Source of the DNA: Chiloscyllium plagiosum
Lineage: Eukaryota
Assembly: GCF_004010195.1 (NCBI RefSeq)
Contig: NC_057712.1
Location: forward strand, 14,951,684-15,015,683
Direction: 5' to 3'
Length of the DNA: 64,000 nucleotides
Below the pieces are notes generated by a model. It was not told where the DNA came from. It did not search any database and saw only the letters and a list, made by a program, of their open reading frames with translations. Shown here in pieces: positions 5,145 through 61,925 of the stretch. Numbering within the stretch: the first letter of the stretch is position 1; every line of letters starts with the position of its first letter. The translations under genes and the position numbers were made by a program.

Positions 5145-5285
5145 TGTTCTGAAGAACACTGATTTCCAACTTGAAATGCTAACTCTGTTTTTTCTCTCTC
5201 CACAGATGTGGTTGGTCTTGCTGAGCTTCTTCAGCAGTCTCTGTGTTTGTTACAGATTTCCAGCATCTCCAATATTTTGATTTTA
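5145..5285 (+). mobile_element. Degenerate Penelope-derived terminal-repeat fragment
   Basis: ttctgaagaa...gaaatgctaactctg...ctccacagatg...gctgagcttcttcagca...gatttccagcatct resembles the right arm at 59693-59830. Confidence 0.6.
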
Positions 5286-5408: not shown

Positions 5409-6112
5409 GGTGTAGGACCATTCGGTGCAGCCACTTTGGTGTGATCGATTCGGCGCGGCCGGTTTGGCGCAGCCCGTTTTGGCACAGACCCATTTAGGCG
5501 CGTAACTGTTTCAGCGCAGCTCATATTTATTCCTTTTCAGGCTTAGTTACAAGCATTAATGAAAACAATAAGAAGAAAAATAATATTTATTCTCTTCAGT
5601 AAAAATGTTAAAAAGAAAATAAAAATGAAAGGAATAAAGTAAATACGAAAAATCTGAAATATGACATTGATTCAAAATTATGGGCAATCCCTCGTAAATA
5701 CTCAATGTCATTTCTCTCACTAAATCTTCTTACAAGTATCTGTATTCTAGTGCCTGCTTCCCTGGATTTCTTCAAGTTCAATAGAATATCACTTTGATGG
5801 GTTATATTTTATTTTAATAATAACTACAAAGTACTGAATAACTACAAAGTACTGAATAACTACAAAACAGTTCTGTGCCTAAATGGGTCGCGCCAAACTG
5901 GCTGCGCCAAATCGCTCGCGCCTAAATGTGTCTGCGCCAAAATGGGTTGTGCCAAACCGGCTGCGACAAATCGCTTGCGCCAAAATAGGTCGTGCCAAAC
6001 CGGCTGCGCCATATTGCTCGCGCCTAGATGAGTCTGCGCCAAAATGGGTTGTGCCAAACTGGCCACGCCGTATCGCTCGCGACAAAGTGGCTGCGCCGAA
6101 TGGTCCCACTCC
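5409..6112. mobile_element. Non-autonomous Mutator-like (foldback-type) DNA transposon with TIRs made of 15-bp repeats
   Basis: Left end ggtgtaggaccattcggtgcagccacttt is the inverse of right end aaagtggctgcgccgaatggtcccactcc. Arms are built of about 15-bp ggcgcagcccgtttt-like units. The internal minus frame reads KKSREAGTRIQILVRRFSERNDIEYLRGIAHNF. Confidence 0.8.
5819..5866. repeat. Short tandem repeat of aataactacaaagtactg, about 2.6 copies
   Basis: Direct reading of the sequence. Confidence 0.9.
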
Positions 6113-8183: not shown

Positions 8184-8447
8184 TATGCACAGGAGAGACG
8201 TGCACAGCAGAGGGGTGCATAAGAGAGGGGTGCAGAGGAGAGAGGTGTACAGGAGAGAGGCGCACAGGAGAGAGGTGCACAGGGGAAAGGTGGACAGGGG
8301 AGGGGTGCACAGGAGAGAGGTGTACAGGAGAGGGGTGCACAGGAGAGAGGTGCACAGGGGAGAGGTGGACAGGGGAGGGGTGCACAGGAGAGAGGTGTAC
8401 AGGAGAGGGGTGCACAGGAAGGACATGCACAGGAAAGAGGTGGACAG
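8184..8447. repeat. 15-bp satellite GTGCACAGGAGAG(A/G)G, left segment
   Basis: Tandem 15-mers seen directly. Confidence 0.97.
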
Positions 8448-9838
8448 GAAGGAAGATGTGGTGGACATTTTGAACAATTTGAGGATAGACAAGTCCCCCG
8501 GGCCTGATGGGATATATCCTACGATTATGTGGGAAGCAAGAGAGGAAATTGCAGTACCGTTGGCAATGATCTTCTCGTCTTCACTGGCAACGGGGGTGGT
8601 ACCAGGGGACTGGAGAGTAGCGAATGTTGTGCCCCTGTTCAAAAAAGGGAATAGGGATAACCCCGGGAACTACAGGCCTGTTAGTCTTACTTCTGTGGTA
8701 GGCAAAGTAATGGAAAGGGTACTGAGGGATAGGACTTATGAGTATCTGGAAAGACACTGCTCGAATAGGGACAGCCAGCACGAATTTGTAGGTTTTGCCT
8801 TACGAGTCTTATTGAATTCTTTGAGGAGGTGACCAAACATGTGGATGAGGGTAGAGCAGTGGATGTAGTATACATGGATTTTAGTAAGGCATTTGATAAG
8901 GTTCCCCATGGTAGGCCTATGCGGAAAGTCAGGAGGCATGGGATAGAGGGAAATTTGCCCAACCCGTCTTGGAAACTGGTTTCTGCTGAGCACAGACGAG
9001 AGCATGATTTGAGGTGGGAACTTGACTGTCAGAAAAAGCTCCCAAGAAGCAGCTCCAAAGGAATTTTGAAGTCTGGCAGCACTGAGGGACTTGCATCTCA
9101 GCAAGTGCCTTCAGCTTTGAGCCAAGGGGGAAGTGGGTGGAAGTGTGGACAAGCCCCTGATCTCTCCTCGTGATGCTCTCTTGGGTGCAAAGCTCACCAC
9201 CTCTTCTTGAAAGTGGTCCCTTTGAAGACAGGTGCAGGCAGCAGCCGCTTGAGTTCCTCCTCTTCACCCCCCCCTCCATTAGCCCTCCCCACCATCACCA
9301 ACGACATCTGCCAACACGGATGAGGTTGGAGACGATGTGGTTTTGCCAAGAGGCTCCTTCACCTCATCCCAACAACAGTCTACTCACTCTCACTGGATGT
9401 CATTTCTCTGCTTTGCAGAGAAGATTTACCAGGATGTTGCCTGGAATGGAGAGGAAGTCGTACGAGGATAGGTTGAGAGTTCTCGGCCTTTTCTTGTTGG
9501 AACGGCGAAGGATGAGGGGTGACTTGATAGAGCTTTATAAGATGATCAGAGGAATAGGTAGAGTAGACAGTCAGAAACTTTTTCCCCGGGTACAACAGAG
9601 TGTTACAAGGGGACATAAATTTAAGGTGAAGGGTTGAAGGTATAGGGGAGATGTCAGGGATGGATTCTTTACCCGGAGAGTGGTGGGGCTTGGAATGCGC
9701 TGCCTGTGGGAGTGGTAGAGTCAGAATCTTTGGTGACCTTTAAGCGGCAATTGAATAGGTACATGGATGGGTGCTTAAGCTCGGACAAATGTTCGGCACA
9801 ACATTCTGTGCTGTATTGTTCTATGTTCTATGTTCTAA
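8448..9838 (+). mobile_element. 5'-truncated CR1 LINE inserted in the satellite; RT core replaced by foreign sequence (about 8959-9408)
   Basis: [11 protein letters not shown]...DWRVANVVPLFKKG...NYRPVSLTSVVGK...VYMDFSKAFDKVPH, then non-LINE sequence, then QRRFTRMLPGM...TRGHKFKV and a (tgttcta)n tail. Confidence 0.92.
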
Positions 9839-12727
9839 GAGAGTGGTGCACAGGAGAGGGGTGCACAGGAGAGAGGTGCACAAGACAGGGGTGCACAGCA
9901 GAGGGGTGCTAAGCAGAGGGGTGCACAGCAAAGGGGTGCACAGAGAGGGGTGCACAGGAGAGAGGTGTACAGGAGAGAGGTGCACAGGAGAGAGGTGCAC
10001 AGGAGACAGGTGCACAGGAGAGGGTGCACAGGAGAGGGGTGCACAGGAGCGAGGTGCATAGGAGAGAGGTGCACAGGAGAGAGGTGCACAGGAGAGAGTT
10101 GCACAGGAAGGACATGCACAGGAAAGAGGTGGACAAGAGAGTGGTGCACAGGTGAGAGGTGCACAGGAGACAGGTGCACAGTAGAAGGGTGCACAGGAGA
10201 GGGGTGCATAGGAGAGGGGTGCACAGGAGAGAGGTGCACAGGAGAGAGGTGCATAGGAAAGAGGTGCACAGGAGCGGGGTATGCAGGAGAGGGGTGCACA
10301 GGAGAGGGGTGCACAGGTGGGAGGTGCACAGGAAAGACGTGTACAGGAGCGGGGTGCACAGGAGCGGGGTGCACAGGAGAGGGGTGCACAGGAGAGAGGT
10401 GCACAGGAGAGGGGTGCACAGGAAAGACGTGTACAGGAGCGGGGTGCACAGGAGAGGGGTGCACAGGAGAGAGGTGCACAGGAGAGAGGTGCACAGGAGA
10501 GGGGTGCACAGCAGAGGGGTGCACAAGAGAGAGGTGCACAGGAGACGGGTGCACAGAAAAGGTGAGAACAGGAAAGAGGTGCACAGGAGAAGGGTGCACA
10601 GGAGAGAGGTGCACAGGAGAGGGGTGCACAGGAGAGAGGTGCAAAGGAAGGACATGCATAAGAGGGAGGTGCAGAGAACTGAGGTGCACAGGAGAGGGGT
10701 GCACAGAAAAGGTGTGCACAGGAGCGAGGTGCATAGGAGAGAGGTGCACAGGAGAGAGTTGCACAGGAAGGACATGCACAGGAAAGAGGTGGACAAGAGG
10801 TGGTGCACAGGTGAGAGGTGCACAGGAGACAGGTGCACAGTAGAAGGGTGCACAGGAGAGGGGTGCACAGCAGAGGGGTGCACAGGAGAGAGGTGCACAG
10901 GAGAGAGGTGCACAGGAGAGAGGTGCACAGGAGAGAGGTGCACAGGAGACAGGTGCACAGGAGAGAGGTGCAATGGTGGAGGTGGACAGGAGAGGGGTGC
11001 ACAGGAGAGGGTTGCACTGGAGAGGGGTGCACAGGAGCGAGGTGCACAGGAGAGAGGTGCACAGGAAGGATATGCACAGGAAAGAGGTGGACAGGAGAGA
11101 GGTGCACAGAAAAGGTGTGCACAGGAGCGAGATGCACAGGAGAGAAGTGCACAGGAAGGACATGCACAGGAAAGAGGTGGACAGGACAGAGGTGCACAGG
11201 AGAGCGGTGCACAGGAGAGAGGTGCACAGGAGAGAGGTGCACAGGAGAGGGGTGCACAGGAGAGGGGTGCACAGGAGAGAGGTGCACAGGAGTGATGTGC
11301 ACAGGAGAGGGGTGCACAGGAGAGAGGTGTATAGGATAGAGGTGCACAGGAGTGGGGTGCAGAGAGGTGTATAGGATAGAGGTGCACAGGAGTGGGGTGC
11401 ACAGGAGAGGGGTGCACAGGAGAGGGGTGCACAGGAGAGAGGTGCACAGGAGAGAGGTGCACAGGAGAGGGGTGCACAAGAAGGTGGCGTACAGGAGAGA
11501 GGTACACCGGAGATGGGTGCACAGGAAGGACATGCACAGGAAAGAGGTGGACAAGAGAGTGGTGCACAGGAGAGGGGTGCACAGGAGACAGGTGCACAGG
11601 AGAGGGGGGCACAGGAGAAGGGTGCACAGGAGAGGGGTGCACAGGAGAGAGGTGCAAAGGAAGGACATGCATAAGAGGGAGGTGCAGAGAAGTGAGGTGC
11701 ACAGGAGAGGGGTGCACAGAAAAGGTGTGCACAGGAGCGAGGTGCATAGGAGAGAGGTGCACAGGAGAGAGGTGCAATGGTGGAGGTGGACAGGAGAGGG
11801 GTGCACAGGAGAGGGGTGCACAGGAGNNNNNNNNNNNNNNNNNNNNNNNNNNNNNNNNNNNNNNNNNNNNNNNNNNNNNNNNNNNNNNNNNNNNNNNNNN
11901 NNNNNNNNNNNNNNNNNNNNNNNNNNNNNNNNNNNNNNNNNNNNNNNNNNNNNNNNNNNNNNNNNNNNNNNNNNNNNNNNNNNNNNNNNNNNNNNNNNNN
12001 NNNNNNNNNNNNNNNNNNNNNNNNNNNNTGCACAGGAAGGACATGCACAGGAAAGAGGTGGACAGGACAGAGGTGCACAGGAGAGCGGTGCACAGGAGAG
12101 AGGTGCACAGGAGAGAGTTGCACAGGAAAGAGGTGGACAAGAGAGTGGTGCACAGGTGAGAGGTGCACAGGAGACAGGTGCACAGTAGAGGGGTGCACAG
12201 GAGAGGGGTGCATAGGAGAGAAGTGCACAGGAGAGGGGTGCACAGGTGAGAGGTGCACAGGAAAGAGGTGTACAGGAGCAGGGTGTACAGGAGAGGGGTG
12301 CACAGGAGAGGGGTGCACAGGAGAGAGGTGCACAGGAGAGGGGTGCACAGGAGAGGGGTGCACAGCAGAGAGGTGCACAGGAGAGGGGTTCACAGTGCAG
12401 AGGTGCACAGGAGAGAGGTGCACAGGAGAGGGGTGCACAGGAGAGGGGTGCACAGGAGAGGGGTGCACAGGAGAGAGGTGCACAGGAGAGGGGTGAGCAA
12501 GAGTGAGGTGCACAGGAGAGGGGTGCACAGGAGAGGGGTGCACAGGAGAGGGATGCACAGGAGAGGGTTGCACAGGAGAGGGGTGCACAAGAAAGTGGCG
12601 TACAGGAGAGAAGTGCACCGGAGAGGAGTGCACAGGAGAGTGGTGCACAGGAGAGGGGTGCACAGGAAAGAGGTGCTCAGGAGAGGGGTGCACTGGAGAG
12701 AGGTGCACAGGAGAGGGGTGCACAAGA
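9839..12727. repeat. 15-bp satellite GTGCACAGGAGAG(A/G)G, main array with recurring variant blocks
   Basis: About 2.9 kb of 15-mers including the gap; recurring variant runs such as ggaaggacatgcacaggaaagaggtggaca. Confidence 0.98.
11827..12028. other. Assembly gap (N run) inside the satellite
   Basis: 202 N characters. Confidence 1.
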
Positions 12728-12864
12728 GTGATGCAAGTTAGACGGTTGTGTGCAGACAGGAGAAATGTAGGGAAAAGTCATGCAAGAGGGAAGTGCTTAA
12801 GAAGTAGGTATATATGGATCATCATCATGTTGTAGGCAATTTTGTAATAGGCTATCTCAATTTT

Positions 12865-16208: not shown

Positions 16209-16332
16209 GAGAAAGTGAGGACTGCAGATGGTGGAGATCAGAATTGAGAGGGCTTATGCCCGTAATGTTGATTATCCTGCTCCTCGGATGCTGCCTGACC
16301 TGCTGTGCTTTTCCAGCGCCACACTTTCGACT
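16209..16332. mobile_element. Penelope-derived short element with decayed hammerhead
   Basis: TSD ctggtgcatatctgg (16194-16208) / ctggtgcacacctgg (16333-16347); internal gagggcttatgcccgtaatgttgatt. Confidence 0.7.
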
Positions 16333-19624: not shown

Positions 19625-20277
19625 CACTCCTTCATTATATTGGGCAACTTATTATTAAGTCAAAACCAGCAAACCATTTCCACTCTTTAACATTCCCAAG
19701 AGGATATAGCAATCACAAGGGTTGCATCGCTGGAAACCATGTGGAATGATTATCCCATCCATTCATGTGTGAAATCATACAATTGAATGAATTATAATGT
19801 TCTCCCGTATGCCCAGACGGTGGCAATGATGGCAAAAGTGTCCTGCAGTGATAACAAACTGAACAAAGAATTCTCAATTACTATGTCCCTATTCTCGAGA
19901 GTTCATGTTCTTTTTAAATATATATTGCGCTATCCACTGATTTTACTGGAAATGTAGATGTAAAAGGCTGATTTTCACTTTCTATTTGTAAGTCATTTTC
20001 TATTGAAATTAATGGCCAGAAGAAAATATTTTCAGAAATGCGCTGCACAACATACAGTTTCTGCTGACCTCAATCTCCTTTCTCACTGTGGTTGATGTTG
20101 ATTTGAAAGATAATCATTTGTTTAATTTCAACATTGTGTAATATTGTTATGTGGGTGACATCAGATTATCTGTCAGTCATGCATGTCAATGAAAGTCAGG
20201 AGAAGTTGCATTATGACAGTCGATCCAAGATCACCCATTTCATTTCATTATCCAAAACACAATTATCCCGCATATGT

Positions 20278-20479
20278 AAAAGCTGAAAGAACTGCAGATG
20301 CTATAATTCAGAAATAAAAACAGAAGTTGCAAGAAAAGCTCATCAGGTCTGGCAGCATCTGTGAAGAGAAATCAGAGTTTTGAGGAAGGGTCACCGGACT
20401 AGTATTGGAAACACTGATCTCTCTTCACAGATGCTGCCAGATCTGCTGCGCTTTTTCAGCAACTTCTGTTTTTGTTCCT
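20278..20479. mobile_element. Palindromic Penelope-derived element
   Basis: Inverted arms (aaacagaagttgc..ggtctggcagcatctgtgaagag / ctcttcacagatgctgccaga..gcaacttctgttt); perfect 10-bp TSD ccgcatatgt (20268-20277 / 20480-20489). Confidence 0.8.
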
Positions 20480-21954
20480 CCGCATATGTTGTGGGCTACA
20501 TTTTTGAGTCATCGAGCTTCATTGACATTTAAACTGTAGGAGATGAAATCATTCTACAAAACTGGGAACTGCAAAATACTTGAGTCCAACAATACATGGC
20601 CCCATTTAAAAGTATGCAAACCAGTTTAATAGTTCTATTTAACATATTAGCAGACTTTAAAAATTATATAATCTGCTTACCACCATGTCTACAAACACAA
20701 ACCATAACATGCAAACACTATCCGGGTTACATTTTGCAATTGGCCTAAGTAGTTAGTGATGAATTATGCAAAATTTAAAGAGTAGTGACCACATTGAAGT
20801 AAGATGCAAACTGTTATTAGCAAAGAAAGGGAATTTCTTTGTTCGATTAATCGAATTCCGGATAAGCAAATGCTCGAATTCAATCGATAATCAATTTCAA
20901 CAAAGTCTCATTGAAATCCAGGGTTTGAGTTTGAAAGAGTTAAACATATTACCTCTTCACTAATGATACAGTTAAGCCTGCTACAGAAATCAGTATATCA
21001 AACCTTGCTTTGAAGTGGAGTGTATTTGAATGCAGCTCAAAGATAACACTACAAATATTGCACAAATTTTGGCTAATTTTCATTTTTGAAAATACTTCTG
21101 ATTGATAACATTCTTTAAAATCTCTTGGTCAGATTTCTGCTCATTACTAAGATTCATAAAAACACTCCACTTTTAATTATTTCATTGATATATAAACATG
21201 CATTCTTTTGTGCCACTCAAAGCTGCATTTGACCTTCAGGTGTTTAGTGCTCTCACAGATGAGCTTAATGACTTCATTTTCCATCAAAGAGCAATCTTTA
21301 CAGAAACTGGCCACAAAGACTCAGCTAATTATATTCCAAAGCAAATCTTTCAAAATCACATTTCAAAGAGCAATATCTCCTCAAGCTGGCACAAATTTTA
21401 ATTGCTTGATTAAACATCCTTTGATGTTGTCATGGGTACCATTGTTGTAGATCCAGCAGATCTCATTATTTGGACATGTGTCTTATAATTTCGAGAAAAG
21501 TAATGCCGTCTCCTGACAATTTATTTTAGCCCCATTTTACCTACTAAAATGCATTTATTATTGAAATGAGATACTCAGATAAGAGATGAGCTCTTAGGCT
21601 CTGTTCTATAAACTGTCCTTTCTTTTATATCTTTACTATATAATTCAGAGTTTTACATGGTTCTTTAAAGTTCTACTTTCAATTCTTCTGAACAAACTAA
21701 TGACCACACAATTTTGTGCTTATGCAATTATGAGATCAATGAGAAGTTACATTTAGCTCATGTGTTGTGAGGACTCATTTAAAACCTTCAAAATCTTACC
21801 AAAATCATCATCTTAATTGGTATTTTTATTCTATTGTGAAACACCAAAGGAGTGAACTTCCAAATAGTTCTTCAGCTCTTTCATTATAGCTTTGTTGGAA
21901 AAGTTGTTGCACCATTTTTCCTTGGGTTTCCATATTTCTTCAGACAAAGTTATG

Positions 21955-22157: not shown

Positions 22158-22250
22158 GAACCAAAAGAGGAAATGCTGGAAAATCTCAGCATGTCTGGCA
22201 GCATCTGTAAGGAGAGAAAAGAGCTGACGTTTCGAGTCTAACTGACCCTA
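22158..22250 (-). mobile_element. Penelope-derived terminal-repeat fragment with half hammerhead
   Basis: Minus strand gggtc-agtta-gactc-GAAACGTC-agctc...cagatgctgccagac; the CUGANGA half is missing. Confidence 0.65.
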
Positions 22251-25970: not shown

Positions 25971-27300
25971 TTGAGGTGGGAGGACATATTTTCCAACCTA
26001 AAAATGGTGAGTTGGGGACAGTAAATTAAAAACACAGAATAATTTGAAGCAAGATACAACTTGGCTCTGACAGGCATGGAAATTGCCGATTCATTTTAGC
26101 GTTCACGTAAAGTTGTATGATTTTCTAGGGGTTAGGAAAACATGCCATAGGAAAGGAAGTAAAACTGGAGTGCTCTTGTGGAGCCAGTTCCACTGACAAA
26201 CTTTGAGCAGAAATCACTTGTCAACATAGAGAATTTAGAGGTCCTTCTGAGGAATTTAGAGGTTTTCAAATAGATACCAGCAAGACAGGTTTTAACAACA
26301 GATGGGATGAGAGAGACAGTTGTCTTCTACAACAGAGCAGCTGAGTTACGGAGAGCAATGCCAGGTGACAAGGTATGTCCAAGAGGTAAACAGGAGAGAG
26401 AGGTGTAGAGGAGAGAGGCGACTAAGAGAGGGAAAGGTTTTTACCAGATGTGCACTGTAGATGTTTGGCTTCCTTAACCTTTTGAAAAAGCAGCATGCTG
26501 AGATTTTCATCTTAGAAGATGGCAGATATTTGCAGATTCCTACAAGAACAGCTAATCCCTGATGAATTTTGTTCTGTGAATTTCTCAGAAATGATCTTTA
26601 ATTCATTTACATCTGGTTCCTTCCAAGATGCTGCCAAAGAGACTTTAAGGGTGTCTCAGTCCATGGCACTTATCTATCCATATAATTATCTGACTCAGGG
26701 CTCTTGTGGTGAACCTTATATCTGAGCCAGGAAACCTGGGTTCAAGTCCTACCAACTTCATCGGTGTCCAGTAAGATCTCTGAACATTACTTAAGGATTT
26801 ATATAATTTCATTGGAAGCAGTTCGGAACGGTTCATTTGATGATCCCTGGTATGGAGAGATTGTCATATGAGCAAATGTTAAACAGGTTGAGATTCTACT
26901 CACTGGAAGATGAATGAAGATTGAGAGGTGATCTCATTGAATCAAAACATTGAAATTAATAAGTTTCTGATTGCTCGTCAGAGCTGGGAGTTTTGTAAGC
27001 ATTCACTGTGGTGATAATGAACATATCTATGTCTTTGGCTGTCTTCCTACAGTACAAGCCATCAATTATATAATGTGAAAATTCTGGGATGATTACACAA
27101 CCAGATATTATAACTATAAGGGATATTCATCCATTAATGCACAGCTGAGATACAAATAATAATAAATGCTATCATAAACTTCCAAAATAAGACAGTCCAA
27201 AATGCTCTAGCCTTTTAGTCCAAGAAACAGACTTAATTCCACTACAATAAGGGCCACATAACGAGCTATTATGCCAAAAGCAAGCCATTAGATTGTTGAA

Positions 27301-27418
27301 CAAAAACAGATGTTGCTGGAAAAGCTAAGCAGGTCGGACAGCATCTGTGAAGAGAAATCAGAATTAAAGTTTCAGGTCCATTGACCCTTCCTCAGCATCT
27401 ACAGTTCTTTCGGTTTTT
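27301..27418 (-). mobile_element. Penelope-derived short element with hammerhead remnant
   Basis: TSD attagattgttgaa (27287-27300) / attagattcttgaa (27419-27432); minus strand CTGAGGA-agggtc-aatg-gacct-GAAA-cttt. Confidence 0.75.
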
Positions 27419-42498: not shown

Positions 42499-42777
42499 CT
42501 GAAAATGTGTTGCTGGAAAAGCGCAGCAGGTCAGGCAGCATCCAGGGAGCAGGAGAATCAACATTTTGGGCATAAGCCCTTCTTCAAGGACCGCAATTTC
42601 CCCCCGACGTGGTCGACGATGCCCTCCACCACATCTCTTCCACTTCCCGCTCCTCCGCCCTTGAGCCCCGCCCCTCCAACCGCCACCAGGACAGAACCCC
42701 ACTGGTCCTCACCTACCACCCCACCAATCTCCATGTACAGCGCATCATCCGCCGTCATTTTCTTTATTAAACTCTGC
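42499..42777. mobile_element. Penelope fragment: inverted terminal repeat with decayed hammerhead plus ORF remnant
   Basis: Perfect 16-bp TSD acagatgagatggttg (42483-42498 / 42778-42793); plus strand (one frameshift) FKDRNFP/DVVDDALHHISSTSRSSALEPRPSNRHQDRTPLVLTYHPTNLHVQRIIRRHF; minus tTGAAGA-agggc-ttat-gccc-aaaatgtt. Confidence 0.8.
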
Positions 42778-44940: not shown

Positions 44941-45574
44941 GGTTAATGGGAAGTTAATTGTCTGATGCCTGTTTTGGGTCCAGTGATCCTTCCTCAGATC
45001 TGCTGGTATCCAGGAAAAAGGTGTTTTTTTTTTGAGGAGGGACTAAAGAGTAAATGCAAAAACCTGGAGTGACAGGGAAATTAATGACAAGAACAAAGAT
45101 TGAAATGGAAATCCTGTCAGAGAGGGGACCCAAACTTCTTCAATGTGGACAGGCCTGGAAGAGATATAATAGTGCACTAAATAAAAACTGAAATACCAAG
45201 TTAGGATTTTGTACTCATCGAGAATGTTAATTTGTTTTACTTTCCTTGATGAAACATTCTGAAATGAGCATTTACGTGAATAAAAAGTTCATCAGGTTTG
45301 CTTCGGTTTTCTGAAACTGATAAATACAAGCTGATAAATGTAGATACAGTTTCTTGTTCATCTGGCTTGTTAGCCTGTTTATTTTAAATGGCTAATTTTA
45401 CAACAGTGGTGGGGGGGGGAATGGAGTTTAAAATGAACACGTTGAGCATTTATGCACTGGCCCTCCTAGATACTTCTACAAAAAAAGTAATTTTGTTTGA
45501 GCAGGCTGGTCAGCAATTAAAATAGAAGCATAATTAAGTCACGTGACACCCCCAAGATATGACCATTAACTAGC

Positions 45575-53324: not shown

Positions 53325-53407
53325 TGGATGCTGCCTGACCTGCTGTGCTTTTCCAGCACCACTCTAATCTTGACTCTGATCTCCAGCATCTGCAGTCCTC
53401 ACTTTCG
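53325..53407 (+). mobile_element. Penelope-derived terminal-repeat fragment (family of 16209/42499)
   Basis: ggatgctgcctgacctgctgtgcttttccagcacc...tctccagcatctgcagtcctcacttt, flanked by ctacacc on both sides. Confidence 0.7.
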
Positions 53408-59040: not shown

Positions 59041-59567
59041 AAACATGTGCTGAGGGAGTTTTTGAAGATCTTCAATTAAATTAGAATCAGAATTAGAGAG
59101 AGGAGCACAGAGATACAGGAGCACAGTGAAAAGTATACAAAGTCACTGTTTCTGGTGCCATCTTACATATAAAGATGCCTGGGTACATAATCTTAATAAT
59201 GAATTTGCGCTACAAAAAGCACAATGTGAGAACAGAGTAGAGACTGAGTCTTCAATAATGGGAAGCTCATATATACCTTACCAAGTTTCTCCACCATCAC
59301 CATGACTCCGGTCTGGTGTGTGATAGAATAATTACCACTCACTTGCATAGATGAACTAGTATCAATACTCAAGGAGTTTTAAGCATCTTGAGAAAAGATT
59401 AATTGACTGATATTCCTGCCACAAGAATCAATGTCACCTTTCCACTTCCACCTCGGTCACCAAGGTTACTTGGATTTCCAAAAGGCATTTGATAAGGTGC
59501 CACATCAAAGGTGGCAGAAAATAAAAGCTCATGGTGTCTGTGGGAAACTTACTGTCATGGACAGGAA

Positions 59568-59836
59568 TGAGAACTGAAATTGCTGGAAAAGCTCAGTGGG
59601 TCTGGCAGCATCTATGGAGAGAAATCAGCATTAACATTTTGGGTCCAGTGACCCTTCCTCAGAAGATCTGAGAAGTCGCTGAGGGTCACAGAAGAGTTCT
59701 GAGGAAGGGTCGCTGGATCCGAAACGTTAACTCTGATTTCTTCCCACAGATGCTGACAGACCTGCTGCGATTTTACAGCAATTCCTGTTTTCGTTTCTGA
59801 TTTCCAGCATCTGCAGTTTTGTTTGGTTTTTATTTA
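59568..59836. mobile_element. Palindromic Penelope-derived element inserted in a CR1 RT fragment
   Basis: Inverted arms of about 95 bp; TSD-like tcatggacaggaa (59555-59567) / tcatggatagaa (59837-59848); upstream LDFQKAFDKVPH CR1 remnant. Confidence 0.85.
59693..59734 (+). ncRNA. Minimal type-I hammerhead ribozyme (Penelope-associated, palindromic helix III)
   Basis: AGAGUU-CUGAGGA-a-GGGUC-gcug-GAUCC-GAA-ACGU-U-AACUCU: 6-bp helix I, intact core, 5-bp helix II, ACGU palindrome, GUU cleavage triplet. Confidence 0.8.
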
Positions 59837-60471
59837 TCATGGATAGAACATTGCATGGGGAAAAGGAAGATCTAAGAGGCATATATTTAAAACTAAAAAT
59901 AATCAACTCATTTTTTGCTCTTGGAAACAAAACTGCTTAAAATGGTTGTATTAGCTTCTGTGGTTTTATGTGACTCACATTAAGATTTTATGTAACCAAG
60001 TGAAAGATAACAGCAAGAAAGATAAACGAGACAGCAGATGATAAACCAACTCTTCAACAGTTGACAGAAAACAAGAGAAATTAATATGGGATAAAAGCAT
60101 ACACTTACTGACTCAGGAAGATTTGTCAAAGGATTCACTGACAAATTATTGCATGATATAGCTACCGTAGGTAATAATTTGTAAGCTGCCCCTTTATAAT
60201 TGATTTCACCACAAATGGTAAATAATGAGTGCTATTCAAGCAATACAGGCAATTTTCCAAATAAACATGAGATGACTGTACTTAAATGTTGTTATAACCA
60301 TTTGGACTGGACTTCAGTTAATGCCAAAATAACCATTAATGGAATAATATCTTATAGGGAGTTGTATTTTTAGGTCAAATGCAGAATTACATTAGCTATC
60401 AGTTCAGGACTGATAGGTTGGTAAACACAGAATGCATTCAAAACCGAAGGTTTTCTCAAGCTGTTCACTGT

Positions 60472-61925
60472 AGATCTTTCAGTAAAGCCTTTGATAAGGT
60501 TCCACATGGTAGGCTGTTGGAGAAAATGCAGAGGCATGGAATTGAGGGTGATTTAGTAGTTTGGATTAGAAACTGGCTTTCTGAAAGAAGGCAGCGAGTG
60601 GTGGTTGATGAAAAATATTTAGCCTGGAGTCCAGTTACTAGTGGTGTGCCACAAGGATCTGTTTTGGGACCACTGCTGTTTGTCATTTTTATAAATGACT
60701 TAGACGCAGGCACAGGTGGATGGATTAGTAAATTTGCAGATGACACTAAAGTTGGAGGAGTAGTGGACAGTTTGGAAGAATGTTACAGGTTGCAGGGGGA
60801 CTTGGATAAAATGCAGAATTGGGCTGGGAGGTGGCAAATGGAGTTCAATGCAGCTAAATGGGAGGTGATGTACTTTGGGAAGAAAACAGGAAGGCAGAGT
60901 ACTGGGTCAATTGAAAGATTCTTGGTAGTGTGGATGTGCAGAGGGATCTTGGAGACCATTTACATAGATCCCTGAAAGTTGCCACCCAGGTGGATAGTGC
61001 TGTTAAGAAGGCATACAGTGTGTTAGGTTTCATTCGTAGAGGGATTAAGTTCCGGAGCCACAATATCATGCTGCAACTATACAAAATGCTGGTGCAGCCA
61101 CACTTAGAATATTGTTTACAGTTCTGGTCCCCATATTTTGCGAAGGATGTGGAAGAATTGGAAAAGGCGCAGAGGAGATTTACCTCATAAGGGAAGGTCT
61201 TGGGTCAGTTCTCATTGCAAAGAAGAAGGCTAAGAGGGGATTTGATAGAGACATACAAGATGATCAGAGGATTAGATTAGATTCCCTACAATGTGGTAAC
61301 AGGCCGTTCAGCCCAACCAGTCCACACTGACCCTCCGACCCATTTCCCTCTGACTAATGCACCTGACACTATGGACAATTTAGCATGGCCAATTAACAGG
61401 CCGTTCAGCCCAACCAGTCCACACCGACCCTCCGACCCATTTCCCTCTGACTAATGCACCTGACACTATGGACAATTTACCATGGCCAATTCACCTGACC
61501 TGCACATCTTTGGACTATGGGAGGAAACCCACGCAGACACGGGGAGATTGCACAAACTCCACCCAAGGCTGGAATTGAACCTGGGACCATGGTGCTGTGA
61601 GGCAGCAGTGCTAACCACTGAGCCACCGTGCTGCCTTTTTTCCGAGGATGATGACATCAGCTTGTACGAGGGGGCATTACTACAAATTGAGGGGTGATAG
61701 ATTTAAGACAGATGTCAGAGGCAGGTTCTTTACTCAGGTAAGGGTGTGGAATGCCCTACCTGCTAATGTAGTCAACTCAGCCACATTAGGGAGACTTAAA
61801 CAATCCTTAGATAAGCACGTGGCTAATTTTGGGATAGTGTAGGGGGACGAGTTGAGAATAGTTCACAGGTCGGCGCAACATCAAGGGCCGAAGGGCCTGT
61901 TCTGCAATGTGTTGTTCTATGTTCT
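60472..61925 (+). mobile_element. 5'-truncated CR1 LINE with RT domain and 3' tail
   Basis: FSKAFDKVPHGRLL...GVPQGSVLGPLLFVIFINDL...KFADDTK...LEYCLQFWSP; tail gttctatgttcta. Confidence 0.95.
61277..61635 (-). mobile_element. HE1-type V-SINE nested in CR1, with internal tandem duplication
   Basis: Reverse HE1 head ggcagcacggtggctcagtgg; aacaggccgttcagcccaacc...catggccaatt occurs twice in tandem. Confidence 0.92.

Follow-up and report, generated by a model that had tools for sequence, protein, structure and literature searches.

We examined a minimal type I hammerhead at positions 59693-59734 (+ strand) of a 64,000-nt stretch of Chiloscyllium plagiosum DNA, hereafter the window. All of its core positions are intact. 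Helix I pairs AGAGUU with AACUCU (59693-98 / 59729-34) and is followed by the C3-A9 box CUGAGGA (59699-705), in agreement with the required CUGANGA, by one extra unpaired A (59706) and by helix II (59707-11 / 59716-20), which contains one G-U pair, is closed by a GCUG loop and has G59707-C59720 as its G10.1-C11.1 pair. The GAAA box (59721-24) leads into CGUU (59725-28), that is C15.2, G16.2, U16.1 and U17, with the required bases at U16.1 and H17, and cleavage is predicted after U17 at 59728. We number the element from C3 = 0 (59699), which places the cut between +29 and +30. There is no helix III stem, and positions 15.2-16.2 are palindromic, being CG in this copy and GC in a second family described below. 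A sequence-only reading had reported an intact minimal hammerhead here, and every part that it named was found in its place.

Taken in isolation, the 42-mer folds as a hammerhead at -11.9 kcal/mol, but no better than its own shuffles (z -1.05; 30 of 200 equally good), an observation that by itself would fit a chance match or an assembly artefact. The core pattern occurs once in the window against 0.03 matches expected, and 3 of 100 shuffles reach one. The structural descriptor search that the sequence-only reading had called for returned 32 distinct matches in 501 kb and 0, 0 and 0 in three shuffles, the 501 kb being the window plus loci that are motif-enriched through their selection. A scan of the window at Rfam gathering thresholds gave 0 matches, hammerhead families included. 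Across the 3.56 Gb genome a general minimal-hammerhead pattern has 32,769 matches, whereas its reversed control has 21; at this density of ~1 per 110 kb, one match in 64 kb is expected. We give chance or artefact practically no weight: it is refuted by the membership of the motif in a repeat family, and contig 7 of run X1, which may be the assembly's own sample, covers 59638-59738 with 0 differences.

An inverted insertion around the motif

The setting of the motif includes a feature absent from the sequence-only reading, an inverted repeat of 103 nt and 81% identity (59562-59664 / 59697-59799); the segment 59530-59840 folds into a single hairpin (z -13.6). Positions 59562-59836 are a head-to-head inverted insertion with a 10-bp target duplication and with the motif in the right arm. 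This arm (59695-59836, + strand, ~90% identity to the family profile) is a short copy of the pLTR of a Penelope-like element (PLE) that starts at -4 from C3, and the motif is the start of this ~140-bp pLTR piece of an old PLE. Only the right arm carries the 3' 'tail' of ~35 nt (59800-59836, + strand), a feature of PLEs described in passages of PMC8557442 (Craig et al., 2021) and PMC11167929 (Frangieh et al., 2024). The left arm (59562-59664, - strand, ~91% identity to the profile) is an inverted, tail-less copy starting at -2, and its mirror hammerhead (59628-59664, - strand) is defective, with G12 changed to A, C15.2 changed to U so that the palindrome is lost, and a helix I of 2 bp. The junction spacer between the arms (59665-59694, no strand assigned) includes an 8-nt element piece, AGGGTCAC, and two junction-derived bases (59693-59694, + strand) extend helix I from the 4 bp of the family (AGUU/AACU) to 6 bp; the bases typical of the family, C at -5 (49/69) and T at -6 (38/69), do not pair in helix I.

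The target duplication reads TCATGGACAG on the left (59555-59564, + strand, overlapping the arm end by 3 nt) and TCATGGATAG on the right (59837-59846, + strand). The insertion was received by an older LINE RT fragment (59467-59564, + strand), recognised in translation, which matches the RVT_1-positive ORF of 60358-60972 at 81%; we take this fragment, which has 1233 candidates in the genome, to be CR1-like. The sequence CATGGATAG is present once at the target place in the related LINE copies L161, L162 and L166 (3 of 9 fetched), while the remaining fetched copies differ there or end before it. Because a single duplication flanks both arms and related LINE copies carry CATGGATAG once, both arms belong to one insertion event. 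Downstream, at 60358-61900, a LINE RT fragment (RVT_1 E 2e-20) is broken by an opposite-strand SINE, within which 61297-61491 is a 97-bp tandem duplication.

We then compared this unit with its relatives, using 90 of 658 copies whose sole selection criterion was 43 nt of exact identity 3' of the ribozyme (nine C4 places among the 100 listed were left out, and two places share one locus). Their 3' ends lie either around +97 or within the tail at about +123 to +128, where the profile ends, and 35 of the 90 have an inverted partner on their upstream side. Leaving aside three long copies gives 87 units, 55 of them single. Target duplications scoring at least 8, mostly of 10-15 bp, were found in 21/87 units against 4/300 mismatched-flank controls, and most units have no detectable duplication. 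Among the 32 inverted units the tail is on one arm in 24, on both in 1 and on neither in 7 (p=0.0017). A second inverted unit of the same family lies at 20270-20490 of the window, with a tailed left arm (minus strand) and a tail-less right arm joined directly via helix I microhomology (20374); GCATATGT repeats flank it, and its core is defective. At 27299-27395 (-) there is a family copy with a decayed core and a ~30-nt inverted tail fragment directly upstream. Further decayed PLE end pieces, of the query and related families, occur at 22159-22249 (-), 5173-5282 (+), 53327-53399 (+), 42510-42542 (-), 16280-16317 (+) and 44971-45001 (-).

The combination of a pLTR hammerhead, a tail at one end, an inverted 5'-truncated partner and a variable target duplication fits the unit known for endonuclease-positive (EN+) PLEs, which in passages of PMC8557442 and PMC3846280 (Arkhipova et al., 2013) consists of a 5'-truncated copy, an adjacent inverted copy and a 30-40 bp tail at one end. 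Shared with those units are the head-to-head arms, the tail on one arm and target duplications of 8-10 bp; unlike them, this unit consists of two arms of ~100-140 bp with no ORF, and the 5' ends of copies fall sharply at the ribozyme. As far as passages of PMC4209133 describe them (Cervera and De la Pena, 2014), PLE minimal hammerheads resemble the motif in being type I, with no real helix III and a palindromic 15.2-16.2, in the unpaired base between A9 and 10.1, the G10.1-C11.1 pair and the short helix I, and in occurring as thousands of dispersed copies with close opposite-strand pairs. Differences are a helix II of 5 bp here versus 7-8 in Schistosoma and a spacing of opposite-strand pairs of ~30 bp here versus 100-700 bp. 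Cartilaginous fish are unmentioned in these passages; the supplements of that paper list further motifs, among which there may be shark families. The earlier assignment of the motif to the PLE-type minimal hammerheads with a palindromic helix III is thus borne out on both counts. We also considered a non-LTR retrozyme. Parts of PMC7761336 and bioRxiv 10.64898/2026.07.22.740005 describe retrozymes as likewise non-coding, PLE-derived and equipped with a type I hammerhead, but built of direct repeats in tandem, each unit having its own ribozyme, whereas here the pair is inverted and one ribozyme is dead. We rejected this candidate: there is no tandem array at the motif, and the partner copy is inverted and defective.

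The parent element and the decay of its copies

Genome-wide, the family has 4774 candidates (40 scored), 170 places that match the intact-core pattern exactly and 658 exact matches to its 3' sequence (43 nt, 3' of the ribozyme). Longer copies extend upstream into a decayed ORF with the RT motif YIDD and a CX2-5CxxC linker. In the ORF remnants of L092-L100, RT is followed by a C-terminal GIY-YIG endonuclease (EN) with a CxxC Cys pair before YIG, and the linker reads PCNRRQCNTC in L096 and PCNCRRCNTC in L099. Such a linker between RT and EN is given as a Neptune/Nematis feature in passages of PMC8557442. Atlas look-alikes of the remnants were a GIY-YIG cluster (0.97; family on 13-22% of members) and an RVT_1/HTH_animal cluster (0.96; families on 11-26% of members); Pfam searches of 5 ORF remnants gave no significant match (lowest E 0.17, for RVT_1), and neither did a PDB search of the remnants. 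Judged by these sequence features, the parent is an EN+ PLE with a linker of Neptune/Nematis type. The family is old, as its long copies share 73-78% identity with the query copy.

The copies themselves appear to be unprotected. Of the 90 sampled, 69 span the motif; the core boxes are kept in 28, together with the palindrome in 8 and with both helices as well in 3. Substitutions among the 69 affect 24% at G12, 46% at 15.2 and 48% at 16.2, mostly by CpG decay. An apparent signal of selection on the 3' core of dispersed copies (15/272 substituted, versus 84/823 in downstream DNA, p=0.02) was gone after base-type matching, with 15/272 core A/T substituted versus 32/481 downstream A/T (p=0.64). 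On this comparison of substitutions, the family copies decay neutrally. The sequence-only reading had made covariation or conservation of the helices across genomic copies a check on its proposal. Between PLE families of this genome, covariation is seen in both helices and in the palindrome; within the family, the core is kept no better than adjacent DNA. In 11 hand-picked representatives, with pairs counted by anchored positions and no statistic attached, helix II varies at pair 2 (G-C/A-U), pair 3 (G-C/A-U) and pair 4 (U-A/C-G/G-C), helix I varies at pair 1 (U-A/C-G) and pair 2 (U-A/C-G/A-U), and the palindrome is ACGU or AGCU; some representatives (L205, L206, L207, L196, L198) have broken pairs. 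Covariation between families combined with neutral decay of copies indicates that selection acted on the ribozymes of the parents and not on the dispersed copies.

Selection could nevertheless have kept this particular copy, either as an exapted ribozyme or as a structured RNA within a transcript of the host. In favour of this, both of its CpGs have survived, as they have in few other copies (~3/69 retain the whole motif). However, its arm is ~10% diverged, as its relatives are, and at least 170 copies share the exact intact core, so that some survivors are expected. No host exon was found in the 82 of 90 ORFs of at least 70 aa scanned in window positions 30000-64000, where the scan gave one RT match and one sub-threshold zf-MYST match, and we consider maintenance by selection highly improbable. 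The zf-MYST Pfam match (45046-45288, - strand, E 0.0046) adjoins a PLE end piece and is probably a remnant or chance.

Probable masking of the core in transcripts of the locus

The sequence-only reading had gone on to propose that the RNA could cleave itself after 59728 when transcribed, probably through dimerisation. When folding is modelled at equilibrium, with protein, Mg2+ and tertiary contacts left out of account, the hammerhead fold has a probability of 0.21 in the isolated 42-mer, 0.05 in the construct proposed in that reading (59680-59760) and 0.18-0.21 in an RNA starting at 59655 or 59665, but it falls to 1e-10 with a start at 59645 and to 9e-25 with the whole left arm. The antisense arm pairs with the core in a duplex of -56.8 kcal/mol, a penalty of 34 kcal/mol for the ribozyme. 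In any + strand RNA that starts upstream of ~59650 the antisense arm is made first and so pairs with the core, and for the same reason kinetics should favour masking too. A transcript starting within 59655-59693 would, by the model, free the motif. This copy has no TATA box, the TATA of the family lying at -35, upstream of the arm. Self-cleavage of the transcribed copy is accordingly disfavoured by the antisense-arm penalty, by the missing TATA box and by a core kept no better than neighbouring DNA; the modelling makes cleavage at this locus unlikely and the copy probably masked.

We next weighed cleavage in vivo of a dimer, formed with itself or with other family RNAs. The intact core and 6-bp helix I would permit this, a helix-I-swapped dimer of the 42-mer is modelled at -22.2 kcal/mol versus -11.9 kcal/mol per monomer, and the genome offers many potential partner RNAs. 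The low dimer cleavage reported for a Schistosoma minimal hammerhead in passages of PMC4209133 speaks for this route. Activity of minimal hammerheads as published there is weak, with no cleavage of the monomer. Against it, the upstream antisense arm costs its 34 kcal/mol, the copy lacks a TATA box, the dimer of lowest modelled energy is a non-active duplex at -25.8 kcal/mol and the ACGU duplex contributes only -1.7 kcal/mol. We judge dimer cleavage of this copy in vivo to be improbable. An isolated 59680-59760 transcript might cleave weakly as a dimer, yet it would not test the locus. In the portions of PMC11167929 consulted, an Anolis PLE ribozyme cleaved only with protein added and was dispensable for insertion, and RNA-seq gave no ends at its cleavage position. 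Nothing about expression follows from two single-cell poly(A) runs of a single sample: about 2% of X5 gave 95 mapped reads, 93 of them only partially mapped, with none in the unique flanks and no pile of ends, and X6 gave 0.

The 42-mer is very probably the minimal hammerhead of an old EN+ PLE, preserved by chance in a dead-on-arrival insertion, masked by its hairpin and with no ribozyme role. Read-through RNA of the locus would form a hairpin of ~110 bp that buries the core, leaving no cleavage and no ribozyme role. A single copy matters little, being one of tens of thousands.

Where the parent RNA may have begun

The statistics of the family do bear on the role of hammerheads in EN+ PLEs, which passages of PMC8557442 and PMC7761336 call unclear: copies start at the first helix, one TATA-length below a TATA box, with no excess at the cut site. 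We took 5' ends as alignment drop-offs, accurate to a few bases. In the family of this copy (family A, n=90), 47 ends fall in -9 to +1 with the mode at -2, 10 at +19 to +23, 2 in +27 to +33 and 12 beyond -100. A second, younger family was sampled as 70 copies of 7,428 exact 48-nt 3' matches; here 33 ends fall in -12 to +1 with the mode at -8 (6 copies), 7 at +18 to +24, 0 at +26 to +32 and 9 beyond -60. There is thus no excess of 5' ends at the cut site in either family (2/90 versus ~3.9 expected; 0/70 versus ~2), numbers that do not establish a depletion. This younger, very abundant PLE family (genome-wide; L174-L293) has the palindrome AGCU and a TATAAA at -38. Its TATAAA lies at -38 to -40 in 3 of 4 references, ~30 nt above the 5'-end peak. 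Family A has CATATAAA at -35 (TATAAA at -33), the sole TATA-like word in the 334 nt upstream, retained in strict form in 11/19 long-copy rows, and further down TCAGTT at -6, which we take to be initiator-like.

TATA boxes are most effective at -31/-30 from the start (PMC1779604, in part), and passages on PLEs describe a pLTR promoter for D. virilis Penelope (PMC2377424) and TATA plus an Inr-like sequence, suggestive of such a promoter, in the pLTR of Pen2a_Av (PMC3846280/PMC8557442). The positions found here suggest that transcription begins on the 5' strand of helix I and that uncut RNA is copied to its end. If the RNA starts at helix I, then short copies, that at 59693-59734 included, lack a TATA box. 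A circular template would leave no end at the cut site, so the missing excess there is compatible with circles. Our search, which covered few subscription papers and no supplements, found no publication linking the start of PLE RNA to helix I.

The pile-up of 5' ends need not reflect an RNA start: the CAG at -5 to -3 could act as a 3' splice site, or the cDNA could fold back on helix I. The family A mode at -2 comes right after a pyrimidine tract and CAG, and passages of PMC4209133 place the end of a D. virilis intron at the 5' boundary of helix I. Some junctions use helix I microhomology (L026; window 20374), and the small clusters at +19 to +23 (10/90) and +18 to +24 (7/70) show that RT can stop at structure. 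However, the second family has no AG there and yet peaks at -8, 30 nt below its TATAAA at -38; copies starting at -2 have, by eye, no common upstream exon sequence; and family A has no TATA-like word in its 334 upstream nt other than that at -35/-33. A splice acceptor could account for family A but not for the second family, and we regard splicing or fold-back as a possible but doubtful source of the pile-up.

On balance we lean towards reading the thousands of short copies as a fossil map of PLE RNA 5' ends in two unrelated families, with the start in helix I ~30 nt below TATA. On this reading the ribozyme would work as an off-switch, in the control of translation or in circularisation, and linear template ends would not be its product; in each inverted unit, the two RT start sites would have primed one arm apiece. 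The parent would have been transcribed from a TATA promoter in the pLTR with its start on the 5' strand of helix I; RT would have been primed internally at one of two sites (~+97, ~+130) on uncut RNA and run off at its 5' terminus; the cut DNA strands would both have been extended, presumably one from each priming site, and the two cDNAs joined head to head. Passages of PMC3846280 offer self-priming on an antisense template as an alternative origin of inverted arms. Parts of PMC11167929 describe for Poseidon PAc of Anolis two internal RT start sites that define the tail, cutting and extension of both strands, and unprocessed RNA as the main template, all likenesses to this scheme; PAc, however, is active, of the Poseidon clade and has an ORF that starts in stem II, whereas this family is extinct and has a Zn-finger linker. 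If the RNA does start in helix I, then the hammerhead would fold before any other part of the transcript. Cleavage in the 5' pLTR would remove a capped leader of ~35 nt, and cleavage at the 3' pLTR would separate the RT priming sites from the ORF. The positions of the 5' ends give exact and cheap predictions for CAGE and cleavage-end sequencing in this genome, which has a young and abundant family.

We note some further features. In full-5'-end copies of family A (-7 to +38), helix I may by eye reach 7 bp over a CU bulge (AUCAGUU with AACU-CU-GAU), and loop II, ACUG, is by eye complementary to CAGU at -5 to -2. Elsewhere in the window, 5872-6086 is a GC-rich tandem repeat of 28/43/59/102 bp with recurring GCGCCAAA words, and 8186-12728 contains long tandem arrays of a 15-bp unit (~GAGAGAGGTGCACAG, up to 133 copies), whose strong strand skew produces long spurious ORFs.
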